Shown: positions 54 to 53,517 of the stretch, in pieces
Layout of the letters: every line of letters begins with the position of its first letter
Numbering within the stretch: the first letter of the stretch is position 1
Assembly (NCBI GenBank): GCA_047611725.1
Contig: JBLFWR010000004.1
Span: 10,496-74,495 of the forward strand
Source: Candidatus Binatia bacterium
GTDB lineage: Bacteria; Desulfobacterota; Binatia; UBA1149; CAITLU01
Length of the DNA: 64,000 nucleotides
Direction of reading: 5' to 3'
The notes under the pieces: generated by a model
Told to the model about the DNA's origin: nothing
Databases searched by the model: none
Seen by the model: the letters and a program-made list of their open reading frames with translations, nothing else
Position numbers and translations under genes: made by a program

Positions 54-1256
54 CTATTTGTGGGCCGCAGCACCGGCGGCCTCGATCAATATGGCTCGCT
101 CGTAGTCGGCCACATCTTCAAATGTCCCCTTAATTCGACGACGGTTCAGGAACAGGGTGGGGGTCGAACTCAGCTTTAGTTTTTCACCGCTTCGAGCCTC
201 GGCAACGATTTTTTCGAGAGTCTTATGCTCTTCCATGCAGACGCGAAAGGAGTCCTTATCGACTCCAGCGCGTTCGGCGAGGCGAAAGATATTGGTTTCG
301 AAAAGCTGGGGCTGATTGCCGAATAGCTCGGCCGAAACTTCGTGCTGTAGGCCCTGTAGTGATGCACATTGGGCCGCCTCAGCGGCACGACAGGCGTTGC
401 GGTGAACGGTGGAATCTATGGCACCGTTGCACTTCGCATCCAATGGGAAGTTGCGATGAACGACATGGACAAGGTTGCCGCGGCGCTCGAGAACCTCTTC
501 GAGGAGATTCCAATTGCGTCGACAAGAAGGACACTCAAAGTCTGAGTAGTCGATGAGCACGACGGGTTTGCTGCCAAGGTTGGCGGCTTCATCGTCGGAC
601 AAGACCAGCTGGTCGGAATTCTCGATCGGCTGCTCGAAATACCAAGCGTAGAAGTTCGGGTCGCCGGATTGAAGTTCTTGCAGCGTCATACTGCCCGGGT
701 CGAGGCGTTCTCCTTCGCCACCGGAAGAGGCCAGACCGATGGCGGCCGTAACGACCAACGCCGCTCCGGTGGAAGCGATTGCCCCGGCGACGGTCAATGG
801 GCGCGGATGTCCTGGATAGACACGCACGAACTCACGGCAGGCGAACGCAACCACTAAAGCCAGCGTAAAGGAGACGACGTACAACGAGGTACAAAGCAGG
901 CAGATTGTCTTCAGGATAAGGGCCGAGACCAGCGCCATGTACAAAGAAAACACGACCGATCCGATCGTGCCGGCCGCTGCCAGGCCCAGTAAGCGGCTGC
1001 CCGCTCGTCCGCCCTTTCTGGCCATCAAGAATGCTGCCGCCAGCGCTAGATACGCAAGCAGGGCGAGCCAGGCTACGGGTATCCCGGCGACCTTCGAATA
1101 GTCGCTCGATAGTACCGCGTCGCAATTGATCGAGCTGTTGACGTTGCAGAAGCTGGTGTATCGATCGCCGAGCGATGCGATTTGCGAGTGTACCCACGAA
1201 ATCTCAACCGCGATTGCCGCTCCAACGAGCGAAATTAGAGCGGCGGCGAGGAGCAA
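54..1256 (-). CDS. VKOR-family membrane oxidoreductase fused to a DsbA/thioredoxin-like domain (disulfide-bond formation)
   Basis: 400-aa ORF. The N-terminal ~150 aa are hydrophobic helices with a loop Cys pair (FCNVNSSINC) and a membrane CxxC (CLLC), the bacterial VKOR pattern. The C-terminal domain has a thioredoxin-fold CxxC (DFECPSCRR) in a DsbA-like context. Apparent TTG start at the ORF edge, so the start is uncertain. Confidence 0.8.
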   Translation of the reverse strand: MLLAAALISLVGAAIAVEISWVHSQIASLGDRYTSFCNVNSSINCDAVLSSDYSKVAGIPVAWLALLAYLALAAAFLMARKGGRAGSRLLGLAAAGTIGSVVFSLYMALVSALILKTICLLCTSLYVVSFTLALVVAFACREFVRVYPGHPRPLTVAGAIASTGAALVVTAAIGLASSGGEGERLDPGSMTLQELQSGDPNFYAWYFEQPIENSDQLVLSDDEAANLGSKPVVLIDYSDFECPSCRRNWNLLEEVLERRGNLVHVVHRNFPLDAKCNGAIDSTVHRNACRAAEAAQCASLQGLQHEVSAELFGNQPQLFETNIFRLAERAGVDKDSFRVCMEEHKTLEKIVAEARSGEKLKLSSTPTLFLNRRRIKGTFEDVADYERAILIEAAGAAAHK

Positions 1257-1386: not shown

Positions 1387-3183
1387 TCATGGCGTGGAAC
1401 CCGGCACTTGGGCCTCACAGCGTGCGACTGCGGCTTGGATTACGGGCTCGTCGAGGAGGCGAGCGGCTCGGCGATAGTCGTCCAGAGCCGCCGAACAACC
1501 CTGGCTACGCTCGCGAACCATGCCGCGGCCGTACAAAGCTTCAGGCACGTTGGGGGAAGATTCTAGGACGGTGTCGAACTCTTGTTCGGCGCGATCCAGA
1601 CGTCCATATCCCGCAAGGTCCATCGCATAGGCAATTCGCAGACCGATATGGCTGGGGTTGGTGGTTATCGATTCGGCACGAACCGCGAGGGCGCTTTCGC
1701 GGTCACCCGCGATCTCGTGGGTCACCACAAGGTTGTTCCATGCGCGGTCGAAATCGGGCCGCGAGGAAAGCGCGGTTCGAAAAGCGCGCCTGGCTTCGTC
1801 GAGCTTTCCGGCTTTGGCGAGCATGTTCCCCATGTTGTACGCGGCAACGCCGTAATCCGGCTTAATGGCCAGCGCGCTGCGAAACGAAGCTAGGGCCTCT
1901 TCGGTGCGGCCAGCTCGACCTAAGGCTGAGGCCAGTTCCATATGTGCCCGTGCACTGTGTGGCACGGCCTCTGTGGTTTGTTGAAATAGCTCGATGTGAG
2001 AACGCCAGTCACGCGTGCGGTCGATGTCGATGGCAATCCAGGCAAGGGCGACTGCGCCCAATACCACGCCAGCGCGTTTGCGATCGCGGTTTAGGGCGAA
2101 AGATAGCGCTGGCGCTGCCGCGAGGCACAACCCCAGGGTCGGCAGATAGAACAGACGCTCGCCCATGATCGTCCCAATCTGAACGATGCTGTTGGAGACA
2201 ATCGAGTACGAAGCAACAGCCAGCCCGAGGCCGACCGGTACGGCTGCGAGTTGCCGCCAGCGCCAAGCGCTCCACAGGCTACCTCCGCAAGTGGCAAACC
2301 CGATCACGCTCCAGAGGTTGCCGCGGAAGCCTTCGGCAATGCCAAGCGCATTGTAGGAATAGTCGATGCTGAGGGGGAGGGGCCAGACGACAAGTCCGAT
2401 GTAGCGGCCCAGGACAGCCAAAGCTCCGGCCGCGCGTCCAGGCAGATCGAGACCATGCAGCGGGTTGTCGAGGATATCGGCGGCTGTGGTCGCAGGAAGG
2501 AACGGCCCGTCAGCCGCGGCGCGCAAGCCAACGTAGGCTAGGAGTCCGATTCCAAGGGCCGCTGTTTCTTTTGCTGCACGACTGGCCGGCGCCGGTTGGT
2601 TACGATGCACAAAAATCGCGAACAGCGCCGGGGCCACGAGGATCGTCACTGCATTTTCTTTGGCTAGGATGCCAGCGAACAGGCAAAACGCTGCTGCTGT
2701 CAGCGCCATTGGTGACATTCGCGCGCGAAGCAAGGCCAGAGCTGCACCGGCAAAGCCCAGGGCAGCGAGGATTTCGGCTCGACCCACACTCCAAATTACG
2801 GCTTCGGAATGGATGGGCATTGCCACGAAGGCCAGAGCTGCTGCTGCGGCGCCGAGCCGGTCTACGCCCAAAGCTAGCGCCAGAAGCCATAGCAGCTGCC
2901 CGACTAGGGCATGAAGCACGATATTGGTCGCGTGAAAGGGGCCCGGCGCCGATCCGGATACCCAATGTTGGACCGCGTAGGTCAAGGTCGTCAGGGGTCG
3001 GTAGCCGGGAGAATCGGCACGGTCAGCACCCCACCAAGAGTACGTCGTGAAAATTTCCGGCAGATTCAGTTCGCCGACTACGTGCTCGTTGCTGATGATC
3101 GCGTTGACGTCGTCAGACACGAGCGGGGCATTGAATGCGCCCGCGTACGCGATTCCCGCAGCCACGACGAGGGCGGCGAACAT
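1387..3183 (-). CDS. Polytopic GT-C-type (TMTC/PMT-like) membrane glycosyltransferase candidate with C-terminal TPR repeats
   Basis: ORF 1387..3240; likely ATG at 3183 (MFAALVVAAG). The first-loop motif PLVSDDVNAIISNEHV resembles the conserved acidic motif of TMTC/PMT-type O-mannosyltransferases. Many hydrophobic segments follow. The last ~200 aa are TPR-like (e.g. AYNMGNMLAKAGKLDEARRAFRTALSSRPDF). Confidence 0.6.
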   Translation of the reverse strand: MFAALVVAAGIAYAGAFNAPLVSDDVNAIISNEHVVGELNLPEIFTTYSWWGADRADSPGYRPLTTLTYAVQHWVSGSAPGPFHATNIVLHALVGQLLWLLALALGVDRLGAAAAALAFVAMPIHSEAVIWSVGRAEILAALGFAGAALALLRARMSPMALTAAAFCLFAGILAKENAVTILVAPALFAIFVHRNQPAPASRAAKETAALGIGLLAYVGLRAAADGPFLPATTAADILDNPLHGLDLPGRAAGALAVLGRYIGLVVWPLPLSIDYSYNALGIAEGFRGNLWSVIGFATCGGSLWSAWRWRQLAAVPVGLGLAVASYSIVSNSIVQIGTIMGERLFYLPTLGLCLAAAPALSFALNRDRKRAGVVLGAVALAWIAIDIDRTRDWRSHIELFQQTTEAVPHSARAHMELASALGRAGRTEEALASFRSALAIKPDYGVAAYNMGNMLAKAGKLDEARRAFRTALSSRPDFDRAWNNLVVTHEIAGDRESALAVRAESITTNPSHIGLRIAYAMDLAGYGRLDRAEQEFDTVLESSPNVPEALYGRGMVRERSQGCSAALDDYRRAARLLDEPVIQAAVARCEAQVPGSTP

Positions 3184-3236
3184 TTCCGCATGGATTTTCA
3201 CATGGTCACGCCCTTGGATGGCTGACCGGGGCTGCC

Positions 3237-4442
3237 TCAACGGGAAACGACGTTTGTGACTGCCAACACCGGTAGTGGCGAGACTTGCTCGGTCTCAGTG
3301 TCGGCGGCGTCCATGACTCGTACGTTGAAGCTGCCGGGACTCAAGCTTTCGTTGGTCCGGAATGCGCACGTGACCACCGGGCCAGTCTCAGGCATCCCGT
3401 CCAAGTCGATGATTCCGATCTTGGCGGAACGTCCAAGTTTGTTTGCGGCGCCCAGCATGCCCCCCAAGAACAGGCAGTCCAGCTTGGTTGCACCCTGCGA
3501 GACAAAGCCGCCACTATCGCCGAGGTGGTCGATTTCGAACTGAAGGGCGCCGAGTTCATTGCTGCCTTCGACGATGGAGACTGTGATCTCGTATTCCGGA
3601 AGGCCGGGGCTAAATCCTGGAGAGTCGTCGTAGTTGTCAGTGGCGGTTCCGGTTTCTGCCTGGCCGTCGTCGGCCGCCGCTGGTGCAGACGGGCCAGCCT
3701 TATTGCCCAACGGATTGTTGGCGGCGATGCGGTCGCGCACGCGTTGCGCCGATGTTGATGCCGGCTCCACGGGTGCGACCGGCGCGGCGGGCACGGCGGG
3801 TGGGGTGGCCTTCGGTACGCTGGCGGTCGGAGCCTTTGGAGCTGGAGCCGGTTTGGATGCGGGTGTCGGGGCGGGGCTAGGCGGCGGATTGCTGCCTGCC
3901 GGCTTCTTTCCATCCGGCGAAACCTTCTGCTTGTCCGAAACCGCCGCCGGTGGCGTCGGTTTTTTATCGGTCTCCACGGGGGCCGGAACTGGGAGGGGTT
4001 GGATTCTCGCTTGGCGTGGAGAGCGGGGGTCGAGTTCCTTCCCTTCTTCGTCTTGGGCCTTCACGATCCTGGCTTTCATTGCCTTCTGGATTGTAGTCGC
4101 GTTGGTCATCGGGTCTGCCGGGATCATGCGGCAGGCGGCGAGATCGATTGGGCCGGTAAAACCGCGGTTGGAACGCGCGCGCAAAGTTAGGCGTCCCACG
4201 CCGTCGTCGGTGAAATCTCCGCCTACGAAGGGGCTGATGAAAGCGCACTCAAGATCAGAACCATCTCGGGAGATCGTCGCTCCGGCCTGCGAGTAGTCAA
4301 CAAGAATCGTCGCGCTCGCCAGCCTTGCGGTGTCTTGAGACAGGGAAATCACTACCTCGACGGGGGGTGCGCCACTGTTTCCACACGATGCGAGGATCAG
4401 GCCCAGGCCGGAGACGGCCAGAATTCGAGTGAACTTTTTCAC
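3237..4442 (-). CDS. Lipoprotein with two copies of a two-Cys beta-module separated by a long Pro/Ala/Lys-rich linker
   Basis: ORF 3237..4487. Probable GTG start at 4442 (VKKFTRILAVSGLGLILAS|CGN, lipobox) preceded by a GGGGGA Shine-Dalgarno-like run. Module copies lie at about 4032-4364 and 3240-3590 (ALQFEIDH...LDC...GPVVTCAFR). The linker is PAPTPASKPAPAPKAP-like. Confidence 0.75.
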   Translation of the reverse strand: MKKFTRILAVSGLGLILASCGNSGAPPVEVVISLSQDTARLASATILVDYSQAGATISRDGSDLECAFISPFVGGDFTDDGVGRLTLRARSNRGFTGPIDLAACRMIPADPMTNATTIQKAMKARIVKAQDEEGKELDPRSPRQARIQPLPVPAPVETDKKPTPPAAVSDKQKVSPDGKKPAGSNPPPSPAPTPASKPAPAPKAPTASVPKATPPAVPAAPVAPVEPASTSAQRVRDRIAANNPLGNKAGPSAPAAADDGQAETGTATDNYDDSPGFSPGLPEYEITVSIVEGSNELGALQFEIDHLGDSGGFVSQGATKLDCLFLGGMLGAANKLGRSAKIGIIDLDGMPETGPVVTCAFRTNESLSPGSFNVRVMDAADTETEQVSPLPVLAVTNVVSR

Positions 4443-4483
4443 GGATCCCCCTGAAGGCGGACAGCTGTTGAAATCGCTGCCAA

Positions 4484-5050
4484 TCACGGCGCGGTAGTCG
4501 TTGTGGTTGTGGACGAAGAGGTTGTAGTGGTCGAAGGGGAGCCATCGTCAGGCGCGACCGTCGTCGATGTTGATGTTGATGTTGCGCTGGCCGCGCTGAC
4601 GGCGACGGTGATCGTCGCCGTTTCGTCTGCGCCATCTGCGTCCTGCGCGGTTACGGTGCCAATTGTGAAGTTGCCGGATGTCGGAGCCACGGACGATTCG
4701 AAGGTGCACACGGCGACTTCCTCGTCTGCGTCGATGAGCGTGTCTCCGGCAGAAACGGCAATTTCTAGGTCGTCCACGTCGTCATCAACAAAAGAACTCG
4801 TGCCAGTCGCGTTGCCACTGGTTGAACAGTCCACGTTCGATCCCGCTCCCGTAAAGTCGCCTCCACCCGTGTAGGTGACGCCAAAGGTCAGCTGGTCGAT
4901 AGGGTTGGTAGCCGTGGCGACGGTGAATGAAATCAGAAAAGTCTGAATGTCACCCTGGCTGGGGCCGCAGCTGGTGATTAAAGGAAGAAGCAGACTTGCG
5001 AGGGTGACCAGGCGAAGTCGCGTGGAGAAGGAGTGCCATTGACGATTCAT
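4484..5050 (-). CDS. Lipoprotein with one two-Cys module and a Ser/Thr-rich C-terminal tail
   Basis: 188-aa ORF with lipobox LPLITS|CG. The module (LTFGVTYTGGGDF...VDC...EEVAVCTFE) lies at about 4598-4951. The tail is STSTSTTVAPDDGSPSTTTTSSSTTTTTTAP. It overlaps the downstream ORF by 4 nt, which suggests an operon. Confidence 0.75.
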   Translation of the reverse strand: MNRQWHSFSTRLRLVTLASLLLPLITSCGPSQGDIQTFLISFTVATATNPIDQLTFGVTYTGGGDFTGAGSNVDCSTSGNATGTSSFVDDDVDDLEIAVSAGDTLIDADEEVAVCTFESSVAPTSGNFTIGTVTAQDADGADETATITVAVSAASATSTSTSTTVAPDDGSPSTTTTSSSTTTTTTAP

Positions 5051-5143
5051 TGGCTTTGAATTCTAGGTTAAACGCCGCCAGGCGGCCAATCGACGCTTTG
5101 GCTTCGCCGGCCGCTGCAGCGATTGGCCGCAGCGTGAACGAAC

Positions 5144-5178
5144 AAAAGCCCGACCCCTTTTTCGGGGGCCGGGCTTTT
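5144..5178 (-). terminator. Rho-independent terminator candidate after the 625-aa Cys-rich gene
   Basis: GC-rich hairpin aaaagcccgacccc / gggggccgggctttt with a 6-nt loop. On the minus strand a T-rich tract (ttttgtt) follows. It lies 41 nt downstream of the stop at 5219. Confidence 0.7.
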
Positions 5179-5218
5179 GCATTGATCTCAGCCACGAGGG
5201 CTCAAATCGTTGTCGGGC

Positions 5219-7096
5219 CTACTCGGTCTGACAGTTCTCGTCGCAGCCGTCGTCTCCGACGAAGTTGCTGTCGTCGCAGGTTTCGTCGCAACCAATTTCG
5301 CCATCGCCGCAGCGACAGACCTGGATAAACGACTTCAGGCTGATGGCCCCGGGGCCGGTCAAGCCACCCGCGCTGTTAATGGTCGACGACGAGGTCGCCG
5401 GCACACAGAACAGAGCGGCCGTGGTCGGCCGTGAGCTGTCATCAACGCAGGTGTCGTCTCCGGCGCAATCGGCATCGCTTGTACAGGCGTTGGGATTGTC
5501 CGGATCGTTTGCGCAGTAGCTGCCCAACGGTGAGGGGACACCGTCTCGGGTGATCTCAGCCTCGAAGCAGGGCTTGAACTCGAACTGACACACGCCTGCA
5601 CTGTTGGCAGCACAGGTTGAATCGTCGTTGCAGGAGCGGAAGCTCTGCAGCGAGCAAGTGCCCACCAAGTTGTCCGGGCACAGCTCCTTGTCATCCAAGC
5701 CGCAGATGAATTTGAACCCTACACCGCATTCGTTCGGCTGAGACTGCGGAGCGTTGGCGCCCACCGATCCACTTCCAACCGTACAAGTACTGTCACCTGG
5801 ACAGGACTCGTCGTCGAAACACGGCAGCGTCGGATCGTCGTCGCAGAATCCACAGTGGCACCAGTGTCCACAGGTAATGGGCTGAATCGGAGCTGCTGCA
5901 CAGGCACCGCCGCCACAGTCACCGTTGGTGCTGCATACGGTGCGTGGGTCGTCGTCGCAGCGCAGGCAATCCGCGTTGGTGCTGCACGAGTCACCATTGT
6001 CAACGCAGGTCGCAGGTCCGTTCAGCGGGTTGTTGCCCAACAGGAAGTTCGAGCACGGTAGCTTCGCCGTCTTCGTCACTGTGCCCGTAGTCACGTTGTC
6101 GAAGATGATCGACAAGCCAGCACCGGAAATGTTGGCACCCAGAGTCGGGGGACAATCGAACGAAACACCACCGAAATCAGGACTGATCGAATCGATCGTG
6201 CAGTCGGCCCCTGGGAACTGTCCATCGTCGCAAGTGAAGGTGGCTCCGAGCTCTAGGTTCTGGCCCAGACGTCCGCAGCGAGGACAGGGCTGATCGACCG
6301 CGTCGCCCAAGAACACACGCGATTTCAGGTTTACGCCGACCTTGGAATCACCAGTCACCGCGTTGCTGGTGCCGGTGAATTCACTGTCGAAAATCGACAC
6401 TACGCAGACCGGGTTGCCGGCCGACGATAGCGGGAGCGGGGGGCCGAACATGAACTTACATGCCACGCCACTGGGGCAATCGCCGTCGGAATCGCAGGCT
6501 GCAAGCGTTGTTACACAGCGCTTCTGACCAACAGGTCCGGCGATCTCGCAGTCGGTGTCGCCACCTTCATTGCAATCGCAGGTCGGGTTGCAAAGTTCGC
6601 CGCTCGGGCAATCTTCGTCTTCGACGCAGATTTCATCCGAGATGCTACAGCGGCGCAGGGTGCGAATGAGCACCGAACCGCCTTCAATCACTTCGGCGTT
6701 GTGGGCGATGCCTGTCCAGCCGGAATCCAGATCGGATCCACTCAGGACAAAAAGTTCAGCTGAGGTGCACGCGGGGCCGCCGTCTACCGGTGGGCAGTCA
6801 CAATCGAGTGTCACCCCAACTTGGCCGACCGCGTAGCGAAGACACTGCAGGGCGTCACTGGCACGGACGTTGCCGTCGCCGCTGACATCGCAAATGCACT
6901 CCTCGTCGCTGTCTGGGAGGCAAGCCTGGGCGCCTACGGCGACCTTAAGGATGGCCAGGCAGTCGCTGGCTCTCGGGCCCTCGTTATTGGTTGACGGTTG
7001 GCTACAGTCGCCCTGAGCGGCCAAAGCTGCTGCGGGCAAGAAGATTGAGAGGACGAGCGCGCCAGCGGTAAACAGGCGCATTGCGGAATTTCGCAC
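5219..7096 (-). CDS. Secreted, extremely Cys-rich protein (paralogue 1) with an N-terminal dockerin-like repeat pair and a C-terminal Myxococcus-type Cys repeat
   Basis: 625-aa ORF with a GTG start 7-8 nt after AAGGAGGG. Signal peptide ...PAAALAAQ|GD. 60 Cys by my hand count. Dockerin-like CDVSGDGNVRASDALQCLRYAVG. Core motifs SGWTGIAHN, PPLPLSSAGNPVC, PCPRCG, NISGAGLSI and FCVPATSSSTINSAGGLTGPG are shared with the ORFs at 10374..13346 and 13661..15742. The C-terminus CGDGEIGCDETCDDSNFVGDDGCDENC resembles the Myxococcus cysteine-rich repeat. Confidence 0.85.
   Translation of the reverse strand: MRNSAMRLFTAGALVLSIFLPAAALAAQGDCSQPSTNNEGPRASDCLAILKVAVGAQACLPDSDEECICDVSGDGNVRASDALQCLRYAVGQVGVTLDCDCPPVDGGPACTSAELFVLSGSDLDSGWTGIAHNAEVIEGGSVLIRTLRRCSISDEICVEDEDCPSGELCNPTCDCNEGGDTDCEIAGPVGQKRCVTTLAACDSDGDCPSGVACKFMFGPPLPLSSAGNPVCVVSIFDSEFTGTSNAVTGDSKVGVNLKSRVFLGDAVDQPCPRCGRLGQNLELGATFTCDDGQFPGADCTIDSISPDFGGVSFDCPPTLGANISGAGLSIIFDNVTTGTVTKTAKLPCSNFLLGNNPLNGPATCVDNGDSCSTNADCLRCDDDPRTVCSTNGDCGGGACAAAPIQPITCGHWCHCGFCDDDPTLPCFDDESCPGDSTCTVGSGSVGANAPQSQPNECGVGFKFICGLDDKELCPDNLVGTCSLQSFRSCNDDSTCAANSAGVCQFEFKPCFEAEITRDGVPSPLGSYCANDPDNPNACTSDADCAGDDTCVDDSSRPTTAALFCVPATSSSTINSAGGLTGPGAISLKSFIQVCRCGDGEIGCDETCDDSNFVGDDGCDENCQTE
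6821..7009 (-). other. Dockerin-like EF-hand repeat pair (domain of the 625-aa protein)
   Basis: ASDCLAILKVAVG ... CDVSGDGNVRASDALQCLRYAVG. The second segment fits the D-x-[NSD]-x-D-G-x(5)-D-A-L-x-x-L-[KR] calcium-loop plus helix pattern of dockerin repeats. The first segment keeps only the helix. Confidence 0.6.
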
Positions 7097-7241
7097 GGGG
7101 GGATCCCTCCTTGGATTTCAGTTGGGTGATCATGGCCCTTTGGCCGAGCAGACGGAAGGCTAAAACTAAGGGGAGCCCTGCGAACAGGACTCCCCCTAGT
7201 TATAAAGTGCCGTAGGCGTCTAACCTGCGGCCGTTTTCTTG

Positions 7242-8765
7242 CTACAGCGGAACGACAGCTACGGTGACGTCAATGGTATTGAAGTCAAAGCCGTTACCGT
7301 CAGGATCGCCAGCGTCGTCGATTACAACCCCGAAATCACCCGCCGAGGGTGTTCCGTTGAAGCGGCAGCGCGCGATCTCGGTCGGTCCGTCAAACCCGAA
7401 CAGCGCGATGTAGCCGACGTTCAGCAGGCTGTCTCCGGTGATGTCGTTGAACACCGGTAAAACACTACCGCCGATCGAATCGGTACAATCCACATCACCG
7501 TCGATGTCGACAAAGGTGCCAGCCGCGCCACTGTAATCAACACCGAACTGCAAGGCCCCGAAGGTCAGGGCATTGCTGACGCTGAAGACGATCTCGGAAA
7601 CCGGGCCACTAGCTTCGGTGGTTGTGGTCGTGGAGCTCGTCGTCGTCGGAGCGACATTCGTGGTCGTCGTCGTTCCGCCATCAAGCGTGGTGGTCGTCGG
7701 CTCCAACGTGGTGCTGGTAGTCCCAACCACATTGATTTGGCTCGGGATAACCGACGGGGTGAATCCGAACTCATTGCCGTCCGGGTCCGTTGCGTCGGTG
7801 ATCGTGATGTCGAAGTCGTCGGCAACCGGGCAGATAGCCCCGTTGAACGTGCATTCGACGATGTCGGCAGGACCTTGGATCCCGGCGATGCTGATCACGC
7901 CTACGGTCAGGATCTGCAGGCTTTCTTTGTCGTTGGCTGACGGAACCGATTGGCTTACTAGGAAAGCGCATTCAACGTCTGCTCCCATTCCGGCGAAGCC
8001 GCCCGGTGCATCTGCATAGTCGATATCGAACTGCAGAGAACCGAAGAGAGCGGCGTCTTCGACGCGAAAGACAACGTTGCACTGAACTGCCGGGGGCAGT
8101 GTCACGCTGGTTGTCGTCGACGAAGACGTTGTCGTGGTCGGAGGGATGGTGGTCGTAACTGGCGGCAACGTGGTCGTCGTGTCGGAGACCGTCGTCGTCG
8201 TCGAAGTCGTGGTGCTGTTGAAGTTGCAAGGTGCAACGTTCTCACAGACCGGATCTTCACAATCGGTCAGACCATTGCCGTCGTCATCCACGTCGTTGTC
8301 GCAATTTTCGCAAGACAAGGGGTTTGGATCGCGATCGATGCACAGCGGAGGCGTTTCGTCACAGCCAGCAACGGAACACTCGCAAATCGCGGTGGTGGCC
8401 GCTTCGAGGGCGTCGATGTTGAGGCCGCTGTCGAACACGCAGCTAAACAGTGCCGAGATCTCATCGATGGTGCAGCTGTCGATAGTCACGGTCAGCAGAT
8501 TGCCGTCCAGATCGATGTCGGATTGGCAGCCGTCGAGTGAGCTCGCCAAGTCGCAATTGGCGGCGCCGAGATCGTCGGTGTCAATGCTGGCGCCAGCGGC
8601 GTCCAGATCAACAGTCACGACTACACGGCCACAATCGCCGTCACCGACGATGCCGAAGAAAATTCTAATTAGTCCGCTACCACCGCCATCGTCACAACCG
8701 CCAACGGCAAAGCCGAGCGAGAGGACAAGGGCGCCAAGACCTAGCTTGCGCATCCAACCTTTCAT
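7242..8765 (-). CDS. Lipoprotein with a Cys-rich N-terminal region, Thr-rich linkers and two two-Cys modules
   Basis: 507-aa ORF with ATG 7 nt after AAGGAG and lipobox LGFAVGG|CDD. The N-terminal region includes CENCDNDVDDDGNGLTDCEDPVC. Linkers are STTTSTTTTVSDTTTTLPPVTTTIPPTTTTSSSTTTS and similar. Modules lie at about 7725-8087 (GSLQFDIDYADAPGGF...VEC...IVECTFNG) and 7245-7604 (GALQFGVDYSGAAGTF...VDC...IARCRFNG). Confidence 0.85.
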   Translation of the reverse strand: MKGWMRKLGLGALVLSLGFAVGGCDDGGGSGLIRIFFGIVGDGDCGRVVVTVDLDAAGASIDTDDLGAANCDLASSLDGCQSDIDLDGNLLTVTIDSCTIDEISALFSCVFDSGLNIDALEAATTAICECSVAGCDETPPLCIDRDPNPLSCENCDNDVDDDGNGLTDCEDPVCENVAPCNFNSTTTSTTTTVSDTTTTLPPVTTTIPPTTTTSSSTTTSVTLPPAVQCNVVFRVEDAALFGSLQFDIDYADAPGGFAGMGADVECAFLVSQSVPSANDKESLQILTVGVISIAGIQGPADIVECTFNGAICPVADDFDITITDATDPDGNEFGFTPSVIPSQINVVGTTSTTLEPTTTTLDGGTTTTTNVAPTTTSSTTTTTEASGPVSEIVFSVSNALTFGALQFGVDYSGAAGTFVDIDGDVDCTDSIGGSVLPVFNDITGDSLLNVGYIALFGFDGPTEIARCRFNGTPSAGDFGVVIDDAGDPDGNGFDFNTIDVTVAVVPL

Positions 8766-10373: not shown

Positions 10374-13346
10374 CTATGGTAGCGACGGAACGTTCAGGAC
10401 CGACGTTCCTCCTTGGCGCAACCGACCCATTCCAGGCAAGCCCGCTGTTGAGTTCACTGCTACCGACGTTGTCGCCGGTACGCAGTAGTTCGCAACGGTG
10501 AAGAAGTTAGTCGGATCTGCGTTACCGTTAAGCGTATCTCCACCCTCAACCTGATGGTCTGGCAGGTAGCACAAAGCGACATCAGCCACGCAGATACCGG
10601 CGCCGGGAACGATCTCGTCGCAGTTCTGGGTCGTGTTTTCGTCTTCGGGCTGGCACGGGAGCGACTCAAACTCTCCGCTACAGTGGAATGTCTTGCCAGC
10701 GCCACACACCCCGGCGTCAGGATCTACCACGTCGCAGGGGAATCCAGCGCAGTCGAAGGTGTCACCACAGACCAGGCCATCTTGGCTGCCGCCGTTACAC
10801 TGTCCAGAAGGTAGGCAAAGCGGAACACACCGACCGCTCGGACAAGCGTCGCCACAGACGCCGTCGCCAGGGGTGACAAGGGTGTCGCAATCGGCGTTAA
10901 CCGAACAGCTGTTGAGGCTCTTTTCGGGATCGCCCGCTGTGCAATGCACTGGGGTATCCGTACAGGTGCCTCCAGGGCAATCGCTGTCCTCGTCGCAGGC
11001 AGCGGTGCTGTTACTACAGGTCGTAAAAATCCCACTCCCGGTGTTGCCTGTCACACAGCCCTGGCCGAGTTCCGCGCCAGCATTGCATGAGGCGTTACAC
11101 TTGTTTGGCTTGGTCCGTATTGAGCCAGTACCCAGGACACAGTTGCAGTCAAAGTTCTCGAAACCTTGAGCATCGCAGGCACCAGGGAAGGGCAGTGCTA
11201 CTAGCTCGCTAGTTGTCGGTTGAAATAGGATCTGCAAGCCAGCTCCGGAAATGTTTTTCCCGACCAAGGGCTGACAGTCTACCGAAGTGGTCCCGAAATT
11301 AGTGAATGCCTCGACCCGACACGTGTCTCCTGCATCGATTCCCTGAGCGCAAATCAAGTCAAGCTGACAAGGCCCTCCAGCGCAGCTCGGAGTCGCTGTG
11401 CTGCAGACTTCTTCTGGCCCTGGGCAATCCGAGTCGAAACGACAATCGAGTCCCCAACATTCCCCGCCATCGGTACAATCGCCATTGGCTGTGCAGATAG
11501 TGCCGTCGTTGCTGCCAAAACGGCACTCAAGGGTGTCGCCACAGGTTCCTTCACACCGTTCCTCGTTGCGGTCGCCACCAAGACAGTACCCGCCGCATGT
11601 CGGACAAGGACTTGTCTGCGTGGTGCCGAGGAAAACCTTGGCTCGCAGTTCGTAGTTGATTATGTGCTCACCCGTAACGTGGTTGGCGGTGCCCTCCACG
11701 TCGGAGAAATACTCATTTCTCACGCAAGTCTGGGTTCCACTCGAGGACAGAGGAAGCGGCGCGCCGTTGGTGAGGACCACGCACATTGCCGCGCTGTTAC
11801 AGCGCCCCCGGCACACTTCACTCTCGGCACAATCCGACTGTCTGACGCACGGCCCGGTTGGCGATCCGCCAGTATCGTAGCACTGGGCGTTGCAGTCCGA
11901 CTCGCCGGTACACGACGCTCCGGCATTAGTGGTGAAGGCGTCGCACTGGGCGCAGTCGGCGTCTTCATGCTTGCCATCTACATCACCGAAAGCATCGCAG
12001 CTGGGATCACCAAGATCGAGTCCCCAGTCACAACGCGGCTCTGTTTGCGCGAACACGGTGCAAATCGGGTCGGTTGAAACGCCGATACATGTTGCCGTGT
12101 CGATAGCGTCGAACTCGGTACAGTCACAATTAGTGACCGCGGTGATAAACCCAGCTCGGTCCGGGACACCGGCGTTGTGAGCCAAGCCGGTCCAGCCGCT
12201 GTCAAGCTTTGCTGCAAATCCATCAACAAACCGACGCGCGCGCGGAATATCTCCGCAGGTGCACTCGAACGCATCGCCCGGAGGCAAGCAGTTCCCAACG
12301 CAGGCCGAGTCTTCGGTCCCATCACATTCCTCGCCGATCAGCGCGAACTGGTTTCGAACCGGATTCACGCGATTGTCGCCGCAAAAAGACTTGACGCTAA
12401 GCGGGTAGGCCGCGTTGATGATACTCGTGGGGAGGAATTCCGTTTCCCCGGGGCCTTCGGTCGTTGACCCGGCCTCCATAGCTACGTCTGATAGACATGC
12501 CTGCGCCGCCTCGACCGTCGTGACTCCGCCGACGCCTAGTCCGCATAGATCAAGTACTGTCAGTGTTTCCACGGTGCACTTCTTAGGAATGGCGTCGACG
12601 AGCTTCTGGATCGCTTTCGCTACTTTCTCAGAAGTCTTTTGGTCTGCGACCTGGCAGTTGGTGGTCGTCACCGTAACCGGCTCTCCTGGAACTAGGGCCG
12701 TACGGTTGACCTTGTCTCGACACTTGGCGACGGTTTTGCCGATCGAAGCGGCAGTTTTGCCAACGGTTAAACCCAGAGCGAACATACACTTCTCGGCTTC
12801 TTTGGTGAGCCCGCTTTCGGAGTCGATGCTGCCAGCCACGTTGGCAAGGATCGACTCGGCGATTTGCTCGGCGGCATCAGACACACAATTCCCGATGTCG
12901 GCGGCGTCGGTGATCTCTCCGCAGAGTGACCCCGGGAATCCAATTTTTGAGGCATTCATTGGCTTGGCTTTAGCCCCTGCAGTGCAGATTTCGGGGCTCG
13001 AGCCGTTGGGTGGGCAGGCTTGGCTGTCGATACAGAGCAAACCTGAAACGGAGCAAGTGCTGACGCACTTTTTCCCAGCGAGCTTGACCGCTTTTGCCCG
13101 GGCCTTTGTGATTTTCAACGACGCTTTGGCGTCAGGGCACGACGCAGCCGGATTGGAGAGAAGGCACTTGACGCCATCTTTCGCCGCGTTTTGAACTAGC
13201 TTGGCGGCGCTTTTTGCCATGATGCCAGTACACTTGGCTTCAATCTGGCTGAATGCCTGAGCGTGGGCGTTGCCTGGGGCAACTAGCGCAAACGCCAAGG
13301 CTGTGAGAACCGCCATTGATGTGGCGGCGGTGTGAAAACGTTTCAT
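10374..13346 (-). CDS. Secreted, extremely Cys-rich protein (paralogue 2) with an N-terminal helical Cys-ladder domain
   Basis: 990-aa ORF with ATG shortly after GGAGGAG and signal peptide ...LVAPGNAHAQ|A. The first ~300 aa are Lys/Ala-rich with spaced Cys. Then come an FCGDN...EECDG Myxococcus-repeat-like segment and the shared core motifs DSGWTGLAHN, GAPLPLSSSGTQTC, SPCPTCGG, NISGAGLQI and YCVPATTSVAVNSTAGLPG. Confidence 0.85.
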   Translation of the reverse strand: MKRFHTAATSMAVLTALAFALVAPGNAHAQAFSQIEAKCTGIMAKSAAKLVQNAAKDGVKCLLSNPAASCPDAKASLKITKARAKAVKLAGKKCVSTCSVSGLLCIDSQACPPNGSSPEICTAGAKAKPMNASKIGFPGSLCGEITDAADIGNCVSDAAEQIAESILANVAGSIDSESGLTKEAEKCMFALGLTVGKTAASIGKTVAKCRDKVNRTALVPGEPVTVTTTNCQVADQKTSEKVAKAIQKLVDAIPKKCTVETLTVLDLCGLGVGGVTTVEAAQACLSDVAMEAGSTTEGPGETEFLPTSIINAAYPLSVKSFCGDNRVNPVRNQFALIGEECDGTEDSACVGNCLPPGDAFECTCGDIPRARRFVDGFAAKLDSGWTGLAHNAGVPDRAGFITAVTNCDCTEFDAIDTATCIGVSTDPICTVFAQTEPRCDWGLDLGDPSCDAFGDVDGKHEDADCAQCDAFTTNAGASCTGESDCNAQCYDTGGSPTGPCVRQSDCAESEVCRGRCNSAAMCVVLTNGAPLPLSSSGTQTCVRNEYFSDVEGTANHVTGEHIINYELRAKVFLGTTQTSPCPTCGGYCLGGDRNEERCEGTCGDTLECRFGSNDGTICTANGDCTDGGECWGLDCRFDSDCPGPEEVCSTATPSCAGGPCQLDLICAQGIDAGDTCRVEAFTNFGTTSVDCQPLVGKNISGAGLQILFQPTTSELVALPFPGACDAQGFENFDCNCVLGTGSIRTKPNKCNASCNAGAELGQGCVTGNTGSGIFTTCSNSTAACDEDSDCPGGTCTDTPVHCTAGDPEKSLNSCSVNADCDTLVTPGDGVCGDACPSGRCVPLCLPSGQCNGGSQDGLVCGDTFDCAGFPCDVVDPDAGVCGAGKTFHCSGEFESLPCQPEDENTTQNCDEIVPGAGICVADVALCYLPDHQVEGGDTLNGNADPTNFFTVANYCVPATTSVAVNSTAGLPGMGRLRQGGTSVLNVPSLP

Positions 13347-15742: not shown

Positions 15743-16005
15743 AAATCTCCTCCGGTTATTTCGATACAAATTGGCGGCGAATGTATTTATACGTCTCGCA
15801 CCGTGTTGGGGCGGAGATTAAGATTGCGTCCGTAGCGGTGTCAAGGGAAGTTCTAGGATAACCTAAGCAATAAGCGTTCAACTCGGAGTTTAGGAAGCTC
15901 GCTCGGCAGTCGAAATGTACGATGACGCAGCGAGCCGTTGAGCGGTTTTCCGCGCTGCCAGACCAAGCCGTCGCGAAAGCGATTCCCCACAGGAGACTGA
16001 TTCGA

Positions 16006-18454: not shown

Positions 18455-18710
18455 CGAAATTCCCTCACAAATAACGGGGTGCGACCCCGTTCCCTCTCTT
18501 TAATTCCTTGACCCGACGGATCGAAGGCCAGCGATTAAAACACCGCGGTGCGGACCAGGCAACCAAATCCTGTGTTCCGACCGTTAATGTTTTTTGGAAG
18601 CTCGGTCTTGCGCCAACGGTTTGTCACCCCCAGCCAGCACGCGTACAAGGCGCCCGACCTCTGAGGCACGCCACTTTCAGTGCAGGTGCGCCGAATGGCT
18701 GCATCGTTGG

Positions 18711-18806
18711 GGAGAAGGATCGGGTCCGGTGGCCCGGCCGGTCTTCAAAACCGTGACGTCGACCCTTGCGGCCGACGGAGGGTTCGACTCCCTCCCTTCT
18801 CCGCCA
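18711..18806 (+). tRNA. selC: tRNA-Sec (anticodon UCA)
   Basis: Hand-folded. 8-bp perfect acceptor stem GGAGAAGG/CCTTCTCC. 6-bp D stem CGGGTC/GGCCCG with the 4-nt loop CGGT. Anticodon loop CTTCAAA (UCA). Long variable arm (about 18758-18776). 5-bp T stem GAGGG/CCCTC with loop TTCGACT. Discriminator G and an encoded CCA. The 8/5 geometry and the D arm match bacterial tRNA-Sec. The anticodon stem has only 4 clean pairs. Confidence 0.9.
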
Positions 18807-18816
18807 AGTTTTGCGT

Positions 18817-18853
18817 GCAGCGCGTCGATAGAAAAGGCTATTTGACGCGCTGC
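18817..18853. terminator. Stem-loop between tRNA-Sec and the convergent beta-propeller gene
   Basis: 10-bp perfect arms gcagcgcgtc (18817-18826) and gacgcgctgc (18844-18853) with a 17-nt loop. No strong U-tract. Confidence 0.35.
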
Positions 18854-18895
18854 GCTGTCTTGCCACTCGTCAGTGATGACACCGGAATCTCGGGG

Positions 18896-20248
18896 CTAAC
18901 GTCCGAAACTCAAGGTAAACGGCAGGGCGCCGGGAAAGATCGGGTCCTTCGTCAATTCGACGTTGTTGGCGATGTTGAAGACCCTGAGTCCGGCCGTGAC
19001 CGGTTTCGAGTTTTCGCGGAAAGACACCCACAATTCGCCCGCCTCGGTCAGTTCGATGTCGGTGATGGCCTCTGCGCTCGAAAGAAGTTCGGCGCTTACC
19101 CGCCCTTGCTTAAGGTCGATCTCGACCACCCGGCTGCGAGAGTCCGCTCCCGCTACGATGCCATAGGCACGAGACGACCCGACCACGGCCAGGTCGAACA
19201 GGTCGCCTCCCAGAGCGGAACCGTCGATCAGGACTCCGAGCGACGCTCCAGCCTGGAGATCCACCAATTCGACCCCACCGTCGGACTGATCAACGAACAC
19301 TTTGCCGGGCCCGCCTATATATAGAAGCCCGGAGCGCGGCTCTACGATCAGTCCCTTGGTTTCCAGAAACGGGTTCTCAAGCTCCAAGTCGATGGAGCCA
19401 ACGATCTTGTCGGTCTCTACATCGATCACTGCCAGCCGGCCGGGAGCTGCGGGCAGGAAAAATCCGGTGTGATCGAGCATTTGCAGGGAGACGTAGAGAC
19501 GGTTGCCGACGACCGCCATTTGGTCCATCTCGGGGAGCCCATCCTCGTCGGCGAGTGAAGAGAGATCGATTCGCTCTAGGATCAGCCCGTCGCAACTAAC
19601 CGAAAGGCCCGATTGCAGCACCGCGACGTCCAAGACCAGCAGCTCCGCTCCATCGTAGAGAGTGGCGTATGCCTTGTTGCCCACCCGCGCGATGTCGTGA
19701 GGATTGGAGTTAAAGCCATCCGATAGACTGCACTGTTTTACAGTCGGGAGTGCGGGGTCATCGAGATCCAGGCGCTGCACCGAGTTGGCACCGAAGCGGT
19801 TGAGAAAAACCGGTTCGGTGCCGAGCTTGCGGACTACAGAGTCGCGATGAAGCACTCCCGGCCGAAACTGAACAGCGCGTGTGGCCAGATCTACGACCGC
19901 AACCCCGGCCGCATCAAAGCGAGACGAGGCCGTGGCAACCGCGACGAAGCGGTCTTTGAATGCGGCGCAGCGGGGAATGGTATCCGTGACCGCCGCAAGC
20001 AGTATTCCCAAGGCGTCGGATGCCGACAGCCTCCCGTCCGGCTCGTGCTGCGCCGAGTTGTCGCCCCGGTCGTCGTACTGTCCTGCTACCGCCTTCTTCA
20101 GGGCAGCCAGGGCGTCGCTGGCAAAGACAAAGCCGTCGCCTGTGACGTCGCCACACAGTGCAAACCCGGTGCTTGGGAGGCAAAGCAGCAGGGTGATCAA
20201 AGCGGGGAGACATGCGCCGCCCAGGATTCTCGTTTGATTGCGTATCAT
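18896..20248 (-). CDS. Secreted beta-propeller protein (YncE/lactonase-like repeats) with an N-terminal dockerin-like repeat pair
   Basis: 450-aa ORF with signal peptide ...LCLPSTGFA. Dockerin-like CGDVTGDGFVFASDALAALKKAVAG ... DGRLSASDALGILLAAV. The remainder has repeated beta-propeller-like strands (LLVLDV, LAVIDVETDKIVGSIDL, VELVDLQAG, VVEIDLKQGRV). It starts 10 nt after the stop of the TonB-dependent receptor. Confidence 0.75.
   Translation of the reverse strand: MIRNQTRILGGACLPALITLLLCLPSTGFALCGDVTGDGFVFASDALAALKKAVAGQYDDRGDNSAQHEPDGRLSASDALGILLAAVTDTIPRCAAFKDRFVAVATASSRFDAAGVAVVDLATRAVQFRPGVLHRDSVVRKLGTEPVFLNRFGANSVQRLDLDDPALPTVKQCSLSDGFNSNPHDIARVGNKAYATLYDGAELLVLDVAVLQSGLSVSCDGLILERIDLSSLADEDGLPEMDQMAVVGNRLYVSLQMLDHTGFFLPAAPGRLAVIDVETDKIVGSIDLELENPFLETKGLIVEPRSGLLYIGGPGKVFVDQSDGGVELVDLQAGASLGVLIDGSALGGDLFDLAVVGSSRAYGIVAGADSRSRVVEIDLKQGRVSAELLSSAEAITDIELTEAGELWVSFRENSKPVTAGLRVFNIANNVELTKDPIFPGALPFTLSFGR
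19979..20158 (-). other. Dockerin-like EF-hand repeat pair (domain of the beta-propeller protein)
   Basis: GDVTGDGFVFASDALAALKKAV and EPDGRLSASDALGILLAAV, separated by about 15 aa. Confidence 0.6.
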
Positions 20249-20258
20249 CGGGGCACAC

Positions 20259-42721: not shown

Positions 42722-43201
42722 ATGCATCAGCACTCTAAGATACAATCCACCGTTCTCCCCTTCTTACTCGCAACCCTCTTGGCTGCCTGCACGGGCGGCA
42801 CTGGCGAAGAAAAGAAAGTAGCTGCACCGGCCGCTCCGGACGAAGATCGAGTCTTCACTCTGGCCATTGAGCTGGCCGATGAGATCGAACTCGGTGCGCT
42901 CCAGGTCGATTTTGACTACAGCGATTCGGTTGGCGGCTTCGTCGGCGATGCCGACGCGGTTGAATGCGAGACCGTCGTCGAAGGCGCGTTGAGCAGCTAC
43001 AACAATCAGACTGCCGAAAGGATCCTGAAAGCGGCGTTTGTCGCCGTCGACGGAATGTCGGGCCCCATCCGCATTGCTGAATGCAAATGGAAGGGAGTGT
43101 TCGATCCAGCAACGCTCGGCGTCGAGGTTCGTGACGCGTCGGCACCGGACTTAAGCAATATCGCCCCACTTCCCGAGCTGCGGCTCGTCATCGAGGATTA
43201 A
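42722..43201 (+). CDS. Small lipoprotein consisting of a single two-Cys module
   Basis: ORF 42698..43201. The ATG at 42722 gives MHQHSKIQSTVLPFLLATLLAA|CTGG (lipobox). The module LGALQVDFDYSDSVGGFVGDADAVEC...GPIRIAECKWKG lies at about 42845-43198. Confidence 0.7.
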   Translation: MHQHSKIQSTVLPFLLATLLAACTGGTGEEKKVAAPAAPDEDRVFTLAIELADEIELGALQVDFDYSDSVGGFVGDADAVECETVVEGALSSYNNQTAERILKAAFVAVDGMSGPIRIAECKWKGVFDPATLGVEVRDASAPDLSNIAPLPELRLVIED

Positions 43202-51798: not shown

Positions 51799-53517
51799 CT
51801 AGTCGGCACGCGACTCCAAAGTTGGTTGCGGAATCACAGCAGTGCCTTCTGAATCCAAGGCCTCGATGAGGTCGATGGCGAAGTCGTCGTCGCCAACCGT
51901 ATCGCGGGGAGTGAATCCGCAACGAACGATGTCGGTGCTGCCGGCTGGCGCCTGATCAAGAATCACAGCGAGCCCGACACCGTCGATCAACGGTTCCGCA
52001 CTAAGCTCGCCTTCAACGAGAAGGGAACACTCGGGAGCGCCGGGTAGGCCCCCGAATCTTCCGGCGTTTCCCGAATCAAACCACTGCAGTTCCAGACTCT
52101 GCAATGGCTGGTCGGTTTCGACACTCAAAATCACTGCGCCCACGGCTGGGCATGTGGTGCCCGTACGCATGAATACGGCTAGGCGAAGGGTGGCCAGAGC
52201 GTCGCTCGCAGTGATGGCGCCGTTGCCGTTTACGTCGCAGACAAAAGCCGGACACCGAATGTCTTGACCGACGGCGGATCTGAGCACCAGCAGTGCATCA
52301 GTCGCGAGGATACGACCGGAGTCGTCCGCGTCACCGCAAAGTCGCGACACCGAACAACCCGAAGAGCACCCGTCTCCGTCGTCGGTATTCCCATCGTCAC
52401 ATTCCTCAACGCTTAGTCGCTCGATTCCGTCGCCACACGCGGCAGCGATGCATCCATCCAGGCACGCGTCGCTATTGTCGGCGTTGGCGTCGTCACAGTC
52501 CTCATCGGCTTGGACGACTCCGTCACCGCAGAAGGGTATTGTGGTGGTCGTTACCGATGAACTGCAGTCTAGTTTCGTGATCGCGACGCCAGGTGGCGGA
52601 TCGAGTTCTTCACCGGCCTCGTTGCTGGCCACTTCCACAGCGATCGGAAAGTCGGCTCCGCTGGGTACGCTGCTGCCTGCCCAAGCGCAGCGCACCAGTG
52701 GGCTCGGCGAGTGGAAGGGGTCTAGAGCTATGTGGGCCGCTTCAAGGCGCGCCGCAACGTCGCGGTCGTTGATCGAAGTCAGGGTTCCCGCAAGGAGGAT
52801 CTCGCATTGAACGGCGGAACCGACGCCTAAGAAGTCACCCAGAGCCGGGTCATAATCCAAGTGCCACTGAAGCGCCGTCAATGGTTCCGTGCCGAGCACC
52901 GAAACTTCAACTTGGCAATGAACGGGAGCAATCGTTGAGGTGGTCACCGAAGAGGTAGTCACCGAAGAGGTAGTCGTTGATGTCGTAGAGCTGGTGCTGC
53001 TGTTGGGATCACAGCCTCGTGGAACGGGGACCACCGTGGGCAAGGGCTCAAGGGGTTCGCCATCCGTGGTCGCCGCGTCGTTTACGGTTACGGCAAAGTC
53101 ACTGGCCACAACAACTGCCGTTTGGTCAAAGTTGCATGTGGCGATCACATTCGGTCCTTGAAAACCGAACAGAGAGATCAAACTGGTCGTCAGTTTTCGC
53201 GATGACCGATTGTCCTGGAACGAGCCGAGTACACCGCCAATCTGCTCACTGCAGTCGGGCGTGACCATGCCCGGGGTCACTGCGAACGAACCCGGCGCGT
53301 CTTGATAGTCTACTTCGAAACCCAGGGATCCGAGTTCGAACGGTTGAACGAGCTGCATCTCGACCACACAGCGCGCTTCGGTTTGCCACGCGGATCCAAG
53401 CACGAGGCCAACAGCTATTGCAAAAGGCATTGCCAAGAGCGCTGCCCACCCACGGGCCTTCCGGAACTTTGGGAACTTTGGGAACTTTGCGAATCTTCGA
53501 ACTTTCACGAGTTCCAC
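51799..53517 (-). CDS. Secreted multi-modular protein: three two-Cys modules, two Myxococcus-type Cys repeats and a dockerin-like repeat pair
   Basis: 572 aa with N-terminal KFPKFPKF and a hydrophobic signal segment. Modules lie at about 53023-53370, 52570-52923 and 51802-52146. The linker is SSTSSTTSTTTSSVTTSSVTTST. FCGDGVVQADEDCDDANADNSDAC...CGDGIERLSVEECDDGNTDDGDGCSSGC. Dockerin-like CGDADDSGRILATDALLVLRSAVG ... CDVNGNGAITASDALATLRLAVF. Confidence 0.85.
   Translation of the reverse strand: MELVKVRRFAKFPKFPKFRKARGWAALLAMPFAIAVGLVLGSAWQTEARCVVEMQLVQPFELGSLGFEVDYQDAPGSFAVTPGMVTPDCSEQIGGVLGSFQDNRSSRKLTTSLISLFGFQGPNVIATCNFDQTAVVVASDFAVTVNDAATTDGEPLEPLPTVVPVPRGCDPNSSTSSTTSTTTSSVTTSSVTTSTIAPVHCQVEVSVLGTEPLTALQWHLDYDPALGDFLGVGSAVQCEILLAGTLTSINDRDVAARLEAAHIALDPFHSPSPLVRCAWAGSSVPSGADFPIAVEVASNEAGEELDPPPGVAITKLDCSSSVTTTTIPFCGDGVVQADEDCDDANADNSDACLDGCIAAACGDGIERLSVEECDDGNTDDGDGCSSGCSVSRLCGDADDSGRILATDALLVLRSAVGQDIRCPAFVCDVNGNGAITASDALATLRLAVFMRTGTTCPAVGAVILSVETDQPLQSLELQWFDSGNAGRFGGLPGAPECSLLVEGELSAEPLIDGVGLAVILDQAPAGSTDIVRCGFTPRDTVGDDDFAIDLIEALDSEGTAVIPQPTLESRAD
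52171..52338 (-). other. Dockerin-like EF-hand repeat pair (domain of the 572-aa protein)
   Basis: DADDSGRILATDALLVLRSAVG and DVNGNGAITASDALATLRLAVF, separated by about 8 aa. Confidence 0.65.
52342..52533 (-). other. Two Myxococcus-type cysteine-rich repeats (CGDG...EECDDGN...DGC, DUF4215/TIGR02232-like)
   Basis: CGDGVVQADEDCDDANADNSDACLDGC and CGDGIERLSVEECDDGNTDDGDGCSSGC match the remembered consensus closely. Confidence 0.75.

Follow-up and report, generated by a model that had tools for sequence, protein, structure and literature searches.

A repeated two-cysteine module with a predicted cohesin-like fold, and its accompanying dockerins, in a Candidatus Binatia genome

The 64,000-nucleotide stretch analysed here (hereafter the window), from contig JBLFWR010000004.1 of a Candidatus Binatia bacterium, encodes a module of ~115 residues with two invariant cysteines whose copies are spread over five open reading frames (ORFs) at three loci. 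As judged from a structural model, the module has a cohesin-like fold, with a homology to cohesins that would lie at the level of the fold only, without a link by sequence. In cellulosomes, cohesins act as the receptor in the 'plug and socket' that they form with dockerins, and dockerins are present here both in module-bearing proteins and in the product of a gene located between two module genes. Together, the module and the dockerins suggest that uncultured Binatota and Myxococcota-type bacteria have a system for assembling proteins at the cell surface. The module family is unannotated in current domain databases, yet it is large.

The repeated module, its family and its predicted fold

A first-pass annotation, made from the nucleotide sequence, had proposed nine copies of the module in five proteins at three loci, and translation, alignment and recovery by hidden Markov models (HMMs) all bear this out. 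All nine proposed intervals are in-frame and stop-free, and the copies can be aligned over ~118 columns with C40, C79 and A99 invariant (columns are numbered as in the copy at 7725-8087). The consensus, LGxLQFxxDYxxAxGxFxGxGxxVxC ... GxxGPxxIAxCxF ... DFxxxxxDA, reproduces the two-cysteine motif pattern originally described and is conserved by position. Four of the five proteins are encoded on the minus strand. Protein A (3237-4487), a 416-aa predicted lipoprotein, has two copies, A1 (4023..4364), delimited by the HMM envelope and alignment, and the C-terminal A2 (3252..3593). Protein B (4484-5050), a 188-aa predicted lipoprotein with a Ser/Thr-rich tail, has one (B1, 4595..4942). Protein D (7242-8765), a 507-aa predicted lipoprotein with an N-terminal Cys-rich domain, has D1 (7737..8084; residues ~229-344), which is documented by HMM envelope, alignment, an AlphaFold2 (AF2) model and structural matches to cohesins, and, at its C-terminus, D2 (7251..7601). 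Protein F (51799-53517; 572 aa) has three copies, F1 (53023..53373), F2 (52573..52920) and the C-terminal F3 (51808..52143), which is the most divergent. On the plus strand, protein E (42698-43201), a 159/167-aa predicted lipoprotein (the ORF has 167 aa), has a single copy, E1 (42851..43189). Where long Thr/Ser/Pro linkers occur in these proteins, they separate the modules.

As a control for circularity, HMMs were built without any copy from one protein and then scored on the copies left out. Every left-out copy was recovered, with independent E-values (i-E) from 8.6e-7 to 5.7e-27. F1 and F2 were recovered in this way, as were, each in addition to its alignment, A1 (i-E 5.7e-7), A2 (3.1e-14), B1 (2.2e-9), D2 (3.5e-23), E1 (1.2e-20) and F3 (8.6e-7). 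Pairwise BLASTP gave E<1e-3 for 26 of the 36 copy pairs. The likeness of the copies is neither circular nor compositional. The nine-copy HMM found no additional significant copy in a six-frame translation of the 64-kb window.

A database search with an HMM of the module had been proposed in the first-pass annotation, and HMMER was run exhaustively against 1.84 billion cluster representatives (clusters at 50% identity). It returned 925 representatives at E<=1e-3, usually with 2-4 modules each, of which 631 have E<=1e-10 and 141 reach E<=1e-30. In the top 153 proteins, 344 instances of the domain were counted, two in most proteins and at most four. No Pfam-A or NCBIfam model lies over the module in the five window proteins, in 97 full-length homologues or in 66 isolated modules, the latter even at E<=10, and neither a 9-sequence nor a 66-sequence module profile has a match at E<=10 among the sequences of the PDB. 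The public names of homologues, where given, do not go beyond 'hypothetical protein' or 'cysteine-rich repeat protein'. The family deserves its own Pfam or InterPro entry. Scanning the GTDB species genomes with a degenerate DNA motif returned six loci, of which two are genuine, one in a metagenome-assembled genome (MAG) of Candidatus Binatota (L007) and one in a MAG of an uncultured member of the Myxococcales (L008), where an 834-aa ORF carries four modules. The other four, Actinomycetota-type loci from actinobacterial and Acidimicrobiia MAGs, are chance matches.

The fold was predicted for copy D1 with AF2 from an 11-sequence alignment, one module having been singled out for such a prediction in the first-pass annotation. 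The model is confident, with a predicted local distance difference test (pLDDT) score of 96.2 and a predicted template modelling score of 0.88, and has nine beta strands arranged as a beta-sandwich. With no cover by Pfam or NCBIfam, this agrees with the suggestion that the module represents a new or highly divergent beta-sandwich family. The resemblance to cohesins, also suggested at the outset, is upheld by Foldseek, in which PDB ranks 1-32 for the D1 model are all cohesins (probability 0.9-1.00, query template modelling (TM) score 0.5-0.61), and the first non-cohesin, YcnI, follows at rank 33. The 32 include type II cohesins (3kcp_B, 3fnk, 1tyj, 2y3n, 5k39, 2bm3), type I cohesins (1ohz_A, 2ccl_A, 6kgf_A), 4fl4_B, cohesin-like modules from C. 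perfringens (2jh2, 2vo8, 2w1n) and, at rank 19, the non-cellulosomal cohesin 2xdh from A. fulgidus.

The N-terminal Cys-rich domain of protein D (8313..8696, minus strand; residues 24-151) had been put forward as a possible tenth copy, and it probably is a tenth, divergent cohesin-like domain with extra cysteines. The plain nine-copy HMM gives it no significant score (-1.9), and the assignment comes instead from profile comparison, modelling and structural matches. A profile of 25 orthologous protein D N-termini aligned to the module profile with P=0.006 (hhalign), in a register that places VVVTVDLD on LQFxVDY and aligns both of the invariant cysteines (ANCDL and LFSCVF). The AF2 model (pLDDT 92.1) has its strands in the same order as the module, and its top Foldseek match is 2xdh (probability 1.0; root-mean-square deviation 2.4 Å over 86 columns), with type III cohesins of R. 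flavefaciens next in the list. Carbohydrate-binding modules (CBMs) of families CBM2 and CBM3, and collagen-binding and adhesin domains, are found lower in this list. Between this domain and the Thr-rich linker of protein D lies an acidic Cys-rich segment, CENCDNDVDDDGNGLTDCEDPVC (residues ~153-180; 8196-8310, minus strand), with a weak match, below the cut-off, to the NCBIfam 'acidic double-disulfide repeat' (E=6.5e-5).

Dockerins, membrane anchoring and cysteine pairs

Protein F contains, in addition to its modules, a dockerin with two calcium-loop repeats and flanking cysteines (52162..52341, minus strand), which Pfam Dockerin_1 recognises (25.8 bits, cut-off 22.9), as does a family dockerin HMM that we built from eight dockerin segments of module-bearing homologues. 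This HMM has only three matches in the window, in protein F, in the Cys-rich secreted protein C and in a 450-aa protein, and its match to protein F is partly circular, as one of the eight segments (P0010) is identical to the protein F dockerin. In protein C, the dockerin-like module is N-terminal (6821..6973, minus strand; E=6.9e-11) and was also found by a regular-expression match; its first repeat is degenerate, its second is canonical (DVSGDGNVRASDAL), and Pfam Dockerin_1 does not detect it at E<=1. The dockerin-like module of the 450-aa protein (19982..20158, minus strand) is likewise N-terminal, with E=4.8e-10 from the family HMM and a Pfam Dockerin_1 match at E=0.0055 that is below the cut-off. 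A ten-segment dockerin profile matches dockerins of known structure in the PDB, 4uyp_B (3.9e-6), 2ccl_B (3.7e-5) and 1daq (1.6e-4). Since these are solved cellulosomal dockerins, the accompanying modules are true dockerin homologues, with extra flanking cysteines. Pfam finds Dockerin_1 in 28 of the 97 full-length homologues, and chains with the order module-module-module-dockerin-module are present in the Myxococcales MAG L008 and in L014, from another lineage. With dockerins in module proteins and in the operon, the resemblance in fold becomes a functional hypothesis.

The dockerin of protein F is preceded by Cys-rich acidic repeats (52348..52548, minus strand) that match DUF4215/myxo_disulf_rpt (PF13948, E=4.1e-10, 40.2 bits, cut-off 27; TIGR02232, E=9.7e-12, 44.5 bits, cut-off 20.8), so that dockerin and repeats together sit between the second and third modules. 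DUF4215 repeats are found by Pfam in 40 of the 97 homologues, and are shared with the TIGR02232/DUF4215 repeat proteins of myxobacteria in the same lineages, as exemplified by the Myxococcales MAG L008. With 38-47 residues per unit, DUF4215 bears no relation to the 115-residue module and is a companion domain that does not reveal what the module is.

N-terminal export signals can be read in the translations of all six proteins, A to F. A hydrophobic N-terminus is followed by a lipobox in every module protein except F (ILAS/C, LITS/C, AVGG/C and LLAA/C in A, B, D and E, respectively), and these four are predicted to be bacterial lipoproteins. The lipoboxes (general pattern [LVI][ASTVI][GAS]C) were read from the translations; of 124 complete homologues surveyed with a regular expression, 49 have one.

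The cysteine pair, noted at the outset as a feature that cohesins are not known to have, is invariant, with columns 40 and 79 both cysteine in 252 of 252 full-length homologous instances. In the D1 model the two fall in predicted strands 4 and 7. Cohesins reportedly have two sheets with the strand orders 8-3-6-5 and 9-1-2-7-4, and as strands 4 and 7 are adjacent in this topology, a cross-strand disulfide between C40 and C79 is plausible; as an invariant bond, it would stabilise the fold. There is also an optional pair, at column 3, in strand 1, and at a position just past strand 9. Of the 175 instances that could be evaluated, 100 possess the two cysteines together and 63 lack the pair altogether, with 12 discordant (Fisher p=8e-35, without correction for phylogeny). 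Strands 1 and 9 are adjacent in the same topology, which matches this pair, and in ~60% of instances it presumably acts as a facultative disulfide that links the N-terminal strand to the residue after the last strand. Copy D1 (7737-8084, minus strand) departs from this pattern in that the N-terminal cysteine is present (VQCNVVF), the usual cysteine after strand 9 is absent and there is an extra cysteine in a loop (NGAICPV). In P0024, an ortholog 66% identical to D1, the C-terminal cysteine is normal and there is no cysteine in the loop, which suggests that the disulfide partner has been swapped in D1 relative to P0024.

A gene encoding a 400-aa fusion of VKOR to a thioredoxin/DsbA-like domain (54..1256, minus strand; Pfam VKOR E=1.9e-22, Thioredoxin_4 E=2e-13, DSBA E=1.6e-9) is located 130 bp downstream of the module cluster on the same strand. 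VKOR-thioredoxin/DsbA proteins are a class of enzymes that form disulfide bonds, and this fusion may be functionally tied to the module cluster as the oxidase for its exported Cys-rich proteins.

A proposed receptor role and its alternatives

It seems somewhat probable that the modules bind the accompanying dockerins and so act as the receptors in a cohesin-dockerin system of the non-cellulosomal kind. The modules are exported, and in four of the five window proteins an N-terminal lipid anchor would fasten them to a membrane, with the Thr/Ser/Pro linkers as spacers. The cell-bound anchoring scaffoldins would then be lipoproteins A, B, D and E, and protein F, with three modules, Cys-rich repeats and a dockerin of its own, could be an adaptor or a self-polymerising scaffoldin. 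Protein C and the TonB-linked 450-aa protein, both bearing dockerins, would be cargo docked at the cell surface. The repeats, the large family, the cohesin-like fold, the conservation and pairing of the cysteines and the presence of true dockerins with the modules are what the analysis shows directly; the binding itself, the specificity with which modules and dockerins pair, and the face of the membrane on which the modules lie, are points that we infer. The proposed scheme follows that of cellulosomes, with their anchoring and adaptor scaffoldins, moved to a non-cellulolytic and presumably diderm organism. More tentatively, and with less confidence than we place in dockerin binding itself, Binatota and Myxococcota-type diderms could own a lipid-anchored, disulfide-stapled cohesin-dockerin system that has diverged beyond sequence recognition from the cohesins of Firmicutes and Archaea, and that builds non-cellulolytic surface scaffolds for the display of Cys-rich secreted proteins and of accessory proteins for TonB-dependent uptake, in uncultured phyla with a global distribution.

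With the cohesins of PF00963 (types I, II and III, as represented by 1ANU, 1OHZ_A and 3KCP_B) the module shares a nine-stranded beta-sandwich of ~115-140 residues, tandem copies with Thr/Pro-rich linkers, anchoring to the cell, co-occurrence with dockerins and adaptor-like chains that combine cohesins with a dockerin. It differs in having no detectable sequence similarity, in being shorter (~115 aa) and in having the invariant and the optional cysteine pairs, both of which cohesins lack; its proteins are anchored by a lipobox, in presumably diderm bacteria, rather than by SLH domains or sortase, and it is found without accompanying glycoside hydrolases or CBMs. Another parallel is provided by the non-cellulosomal cohesins (AF2375, 2XDH; 2JH2, 2VO8, 2W1N), which also have the cohesin fold outside of cellulose degradation, often with dockerins in the same genome or protein. 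These are, however, recognised by PF00963 or by the cohesin models in CDD, whereas the module family is not, and the disulfides and the lipoprotein setting are particular to the module family. Both bacteria and Archaea are known to have cohesin-dockerin systems outside cellulosomes, whose function is described as unclear in the passages of PMC9012536 and PMC6030884 that cite the survey by Peer et al. 2009 (FEMS Microbiol Lett 291:1). According to such a passage in PMC9012536 (citing Peer 2009), the archaeal non-cellulosomal cases are without multi-cohesin scaffoldins, whereas two to five modules per chain are usual in the module family.

Several results weigh against a cohesin-like receptor. 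PF00963 has zero matches at E<=1 in the five window proteins and none at E<=0.01 in the 97 full-length homologues; it touches one of the 66 isolated modules (E=0.02) and misses the other 65 and all nine window copies. With hhalign, the 66-sequence module profile gave a probability of 0.2% against a shallow cohesin alignment, built from the CipA cohesin and limited to seven type I sequences (effective sequence number, Neff, 1.7), a template too shallow for the value to be informative. The Foldseek E-values for D1 are weak, with 6e-3 as the best and none at or below 1e-3, and the TM scores against cohesins are only 0.5-0.6, so that convergence on a common jelly-roll could also account for the likeness. 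Of the top 149 homologues, 82 are plain two-module proteins whose chain has no dockerin, the distant homologues P0009 and P0008 have unrelated housekeeping genes as neighbours, with no conserved partners, and the Fisher test on the optional cysteines, as stated, takes no account of phylogeny.

Much of this would be accommodated if the module were a generic structural or adhesive beta-sandwich, a spacer, a stalk or a binder of polysaccharide, matrix or cells, with the dockerins binding something else. We regard this as a possibility of some substance, but as a less likely one than dockerin binding. It is consistent with the modest likeness to cohesins (TM 0.5-0.6, E>=6e-3), with a jelly-roll that is common to CBMs, with the prevalence of two-module homologues that have no dockerin and with the unrelated neighbourhoods of the distant homologues. 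The CBM2, CBM3, collagen-binding and adhesin domains in the Foldseek list of the protein D N-terminal domain also favour it, as does the alternation of conserved and variable positions in the module (F-x-V-x-V), which suggests that the conserved residues belong to the core and so do not mark a conserved ligand surface. CBM2 and CBM3 jelly-rolls do belong to the same class of beta-sandwich, but for D1 they rank far below the cohesins, and the CBM structures are isolated matches of low probability (4c8x, rank 50 for D1; 6qfs, rank 4 for the N-terminal domain of protein D). Ranks 1-32 for D1 are occupied by cohesins rather than by CBMs or Ig-like adhesins; Pfam has no match to a CBM in the window proteins or in the 66 isolated modules, nor any adhesin match, and there are no glycoside hydrolases nearby. 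That 28 of 97 family proteins contain a dockerin, as does the operon partner, protein C, would be hard to explain if dockerin and module were functionally unrelated.

A periplasmic metal or redox domain, similar to the copper-binding YcnI/DUF1775 and with the cysteine pair as ligands or as a redox pair, is very improbable. YcnI structures (8um6, 7me6) do occur at Foldseek ranks 33-35 and later with probabilities of 0.4-0.8, the cysteine pair is invariant, there is a Fur gene 450 bp from protein F and the VKOR-thioredoxin gene is near the cluster. However, YcnI falls below more than 30 cohesins, with lower TM scores, the consensus has no conserved His, Met or Asp cluster near the cysteines, and the second cysteine pair has the appearance of a classic optional structural disulfide. 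The multi-copy design, the mucin-like linkers and the dockerins are typical of scaffoldins and not of metallochaperones. Next to no probability attaches to the idea that the shared motifs are compositional or chance similarities in high-GC, Ala/Gly/Asp-rich ORFs with no genuine domain. Nothing was found in its support, its sole possible basis being the high GC content and the low-complexity linkers, and it is ruled out by the recovery of all copies with HMMs from which their protein had been left out, by the 925 homologous clusters and by the confident AF2 model.

Cohesin-dockerin pairs are among the strongest non-covalent protein interactions known and are widely used in synthetic biology; to our knowledge, their biology outside of cellulosomes is largely unknown. 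As the family contains ~900 sequence clusters that the domain databases miss, surveys based on PF00963 undercount the cohesin-like receptors of diderm bacteria. If the modules bind the accompanying dockerins, this would reveal the organisation of the cell surface in uncultured Binatota and Myxococcota, would offer a first clue to what the widespread DUF4215 Cys-rich proteins do, and would provide compact (~115 aa), disulfide-stabilised, orthogonal cohesin-dockerin pairs for engineering.

Gene neighbourhood and other features of the window

The gene for protein C (5219..7096, minus strand; 625 aa) is positioned between the D and B lipoprotein genes, and the C-terminus of this secreted Cys-rich protein has a sub-threshold match to DUF4215 (17.6 bits). 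The last conserved gene of the D-C-B-A cluster (1387..3240, minus strand) encodes a 617-aa multi-pass membrane protein with C-terminal tetratricopeptide repeats (TPR), as identified by TPR families. The Binatota MAG L007 retains the order D-C-B-A-TPR, with identities of 43% (D), 52% (C), 37% (B), 44% (A) and 46% (617-aa protein), and its ortholog of protein C retains the dockerin (E=3.3e-10). On this synteny alone, a Binatota-related bacterium is the probable source of the window. The N-terminal ~400 aa of the 617-aa protein have no Pfam match even at E<=10, which leaves the candidate function of a GT-C/PMT-like O-glycosyltransferase acting on the Thr-rich linkers unsupported; that this protein modifies or exports the Thr-rich lipoproteins is only a guess. 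Two large ORFs adjoin the module cluster, at 10374-13346 (990 aa) and 13661-15769 (702 aa), both on the minus strand; at the thresholds applied, neither matches a Pfam or NCBIfam family.

The 450-aa protein (18896-20248, minus strand) has an uncharacterised domain of ~350 aa in addition to its N-terminal dockerin-like module. Its gene lies immediately downstream of that for a TonB-dependent receptor (20259-22325, minus strand) and is followed, in the same-strand run (16487-22325), by the gene for a DUF1302 protein (16487-18454, minus strand), an arrangement that suggests that the 450-aa protein is a surface-docked accessory protein of an uptake system. At 18711-18806 on the plus strand there is a selenocysteine tRNA gene (anticodon TCA; Rfam RF01852, 67.5 bits), the only tRNA and the only Rfam match in the window, and the organism therefore probably uses selenoproteins.

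Short tandem repeats are present at three sites. A 12-bp repeat, TCGTGACGGTCA, is reiterated 4.8 times at 51420-51477, in the intergenic stretch that separates the gene for the Fur-family regulator (50869-51345) from that for protein F. Within the protein F gene, 3.4 copies of a 9-bp repeat (53463-53493) encode the FPKFPKFRK N-terminus of the protein, and a 6-bp repeat with 6.5 copies (42302-42340) is located inside a ROK-family gene.

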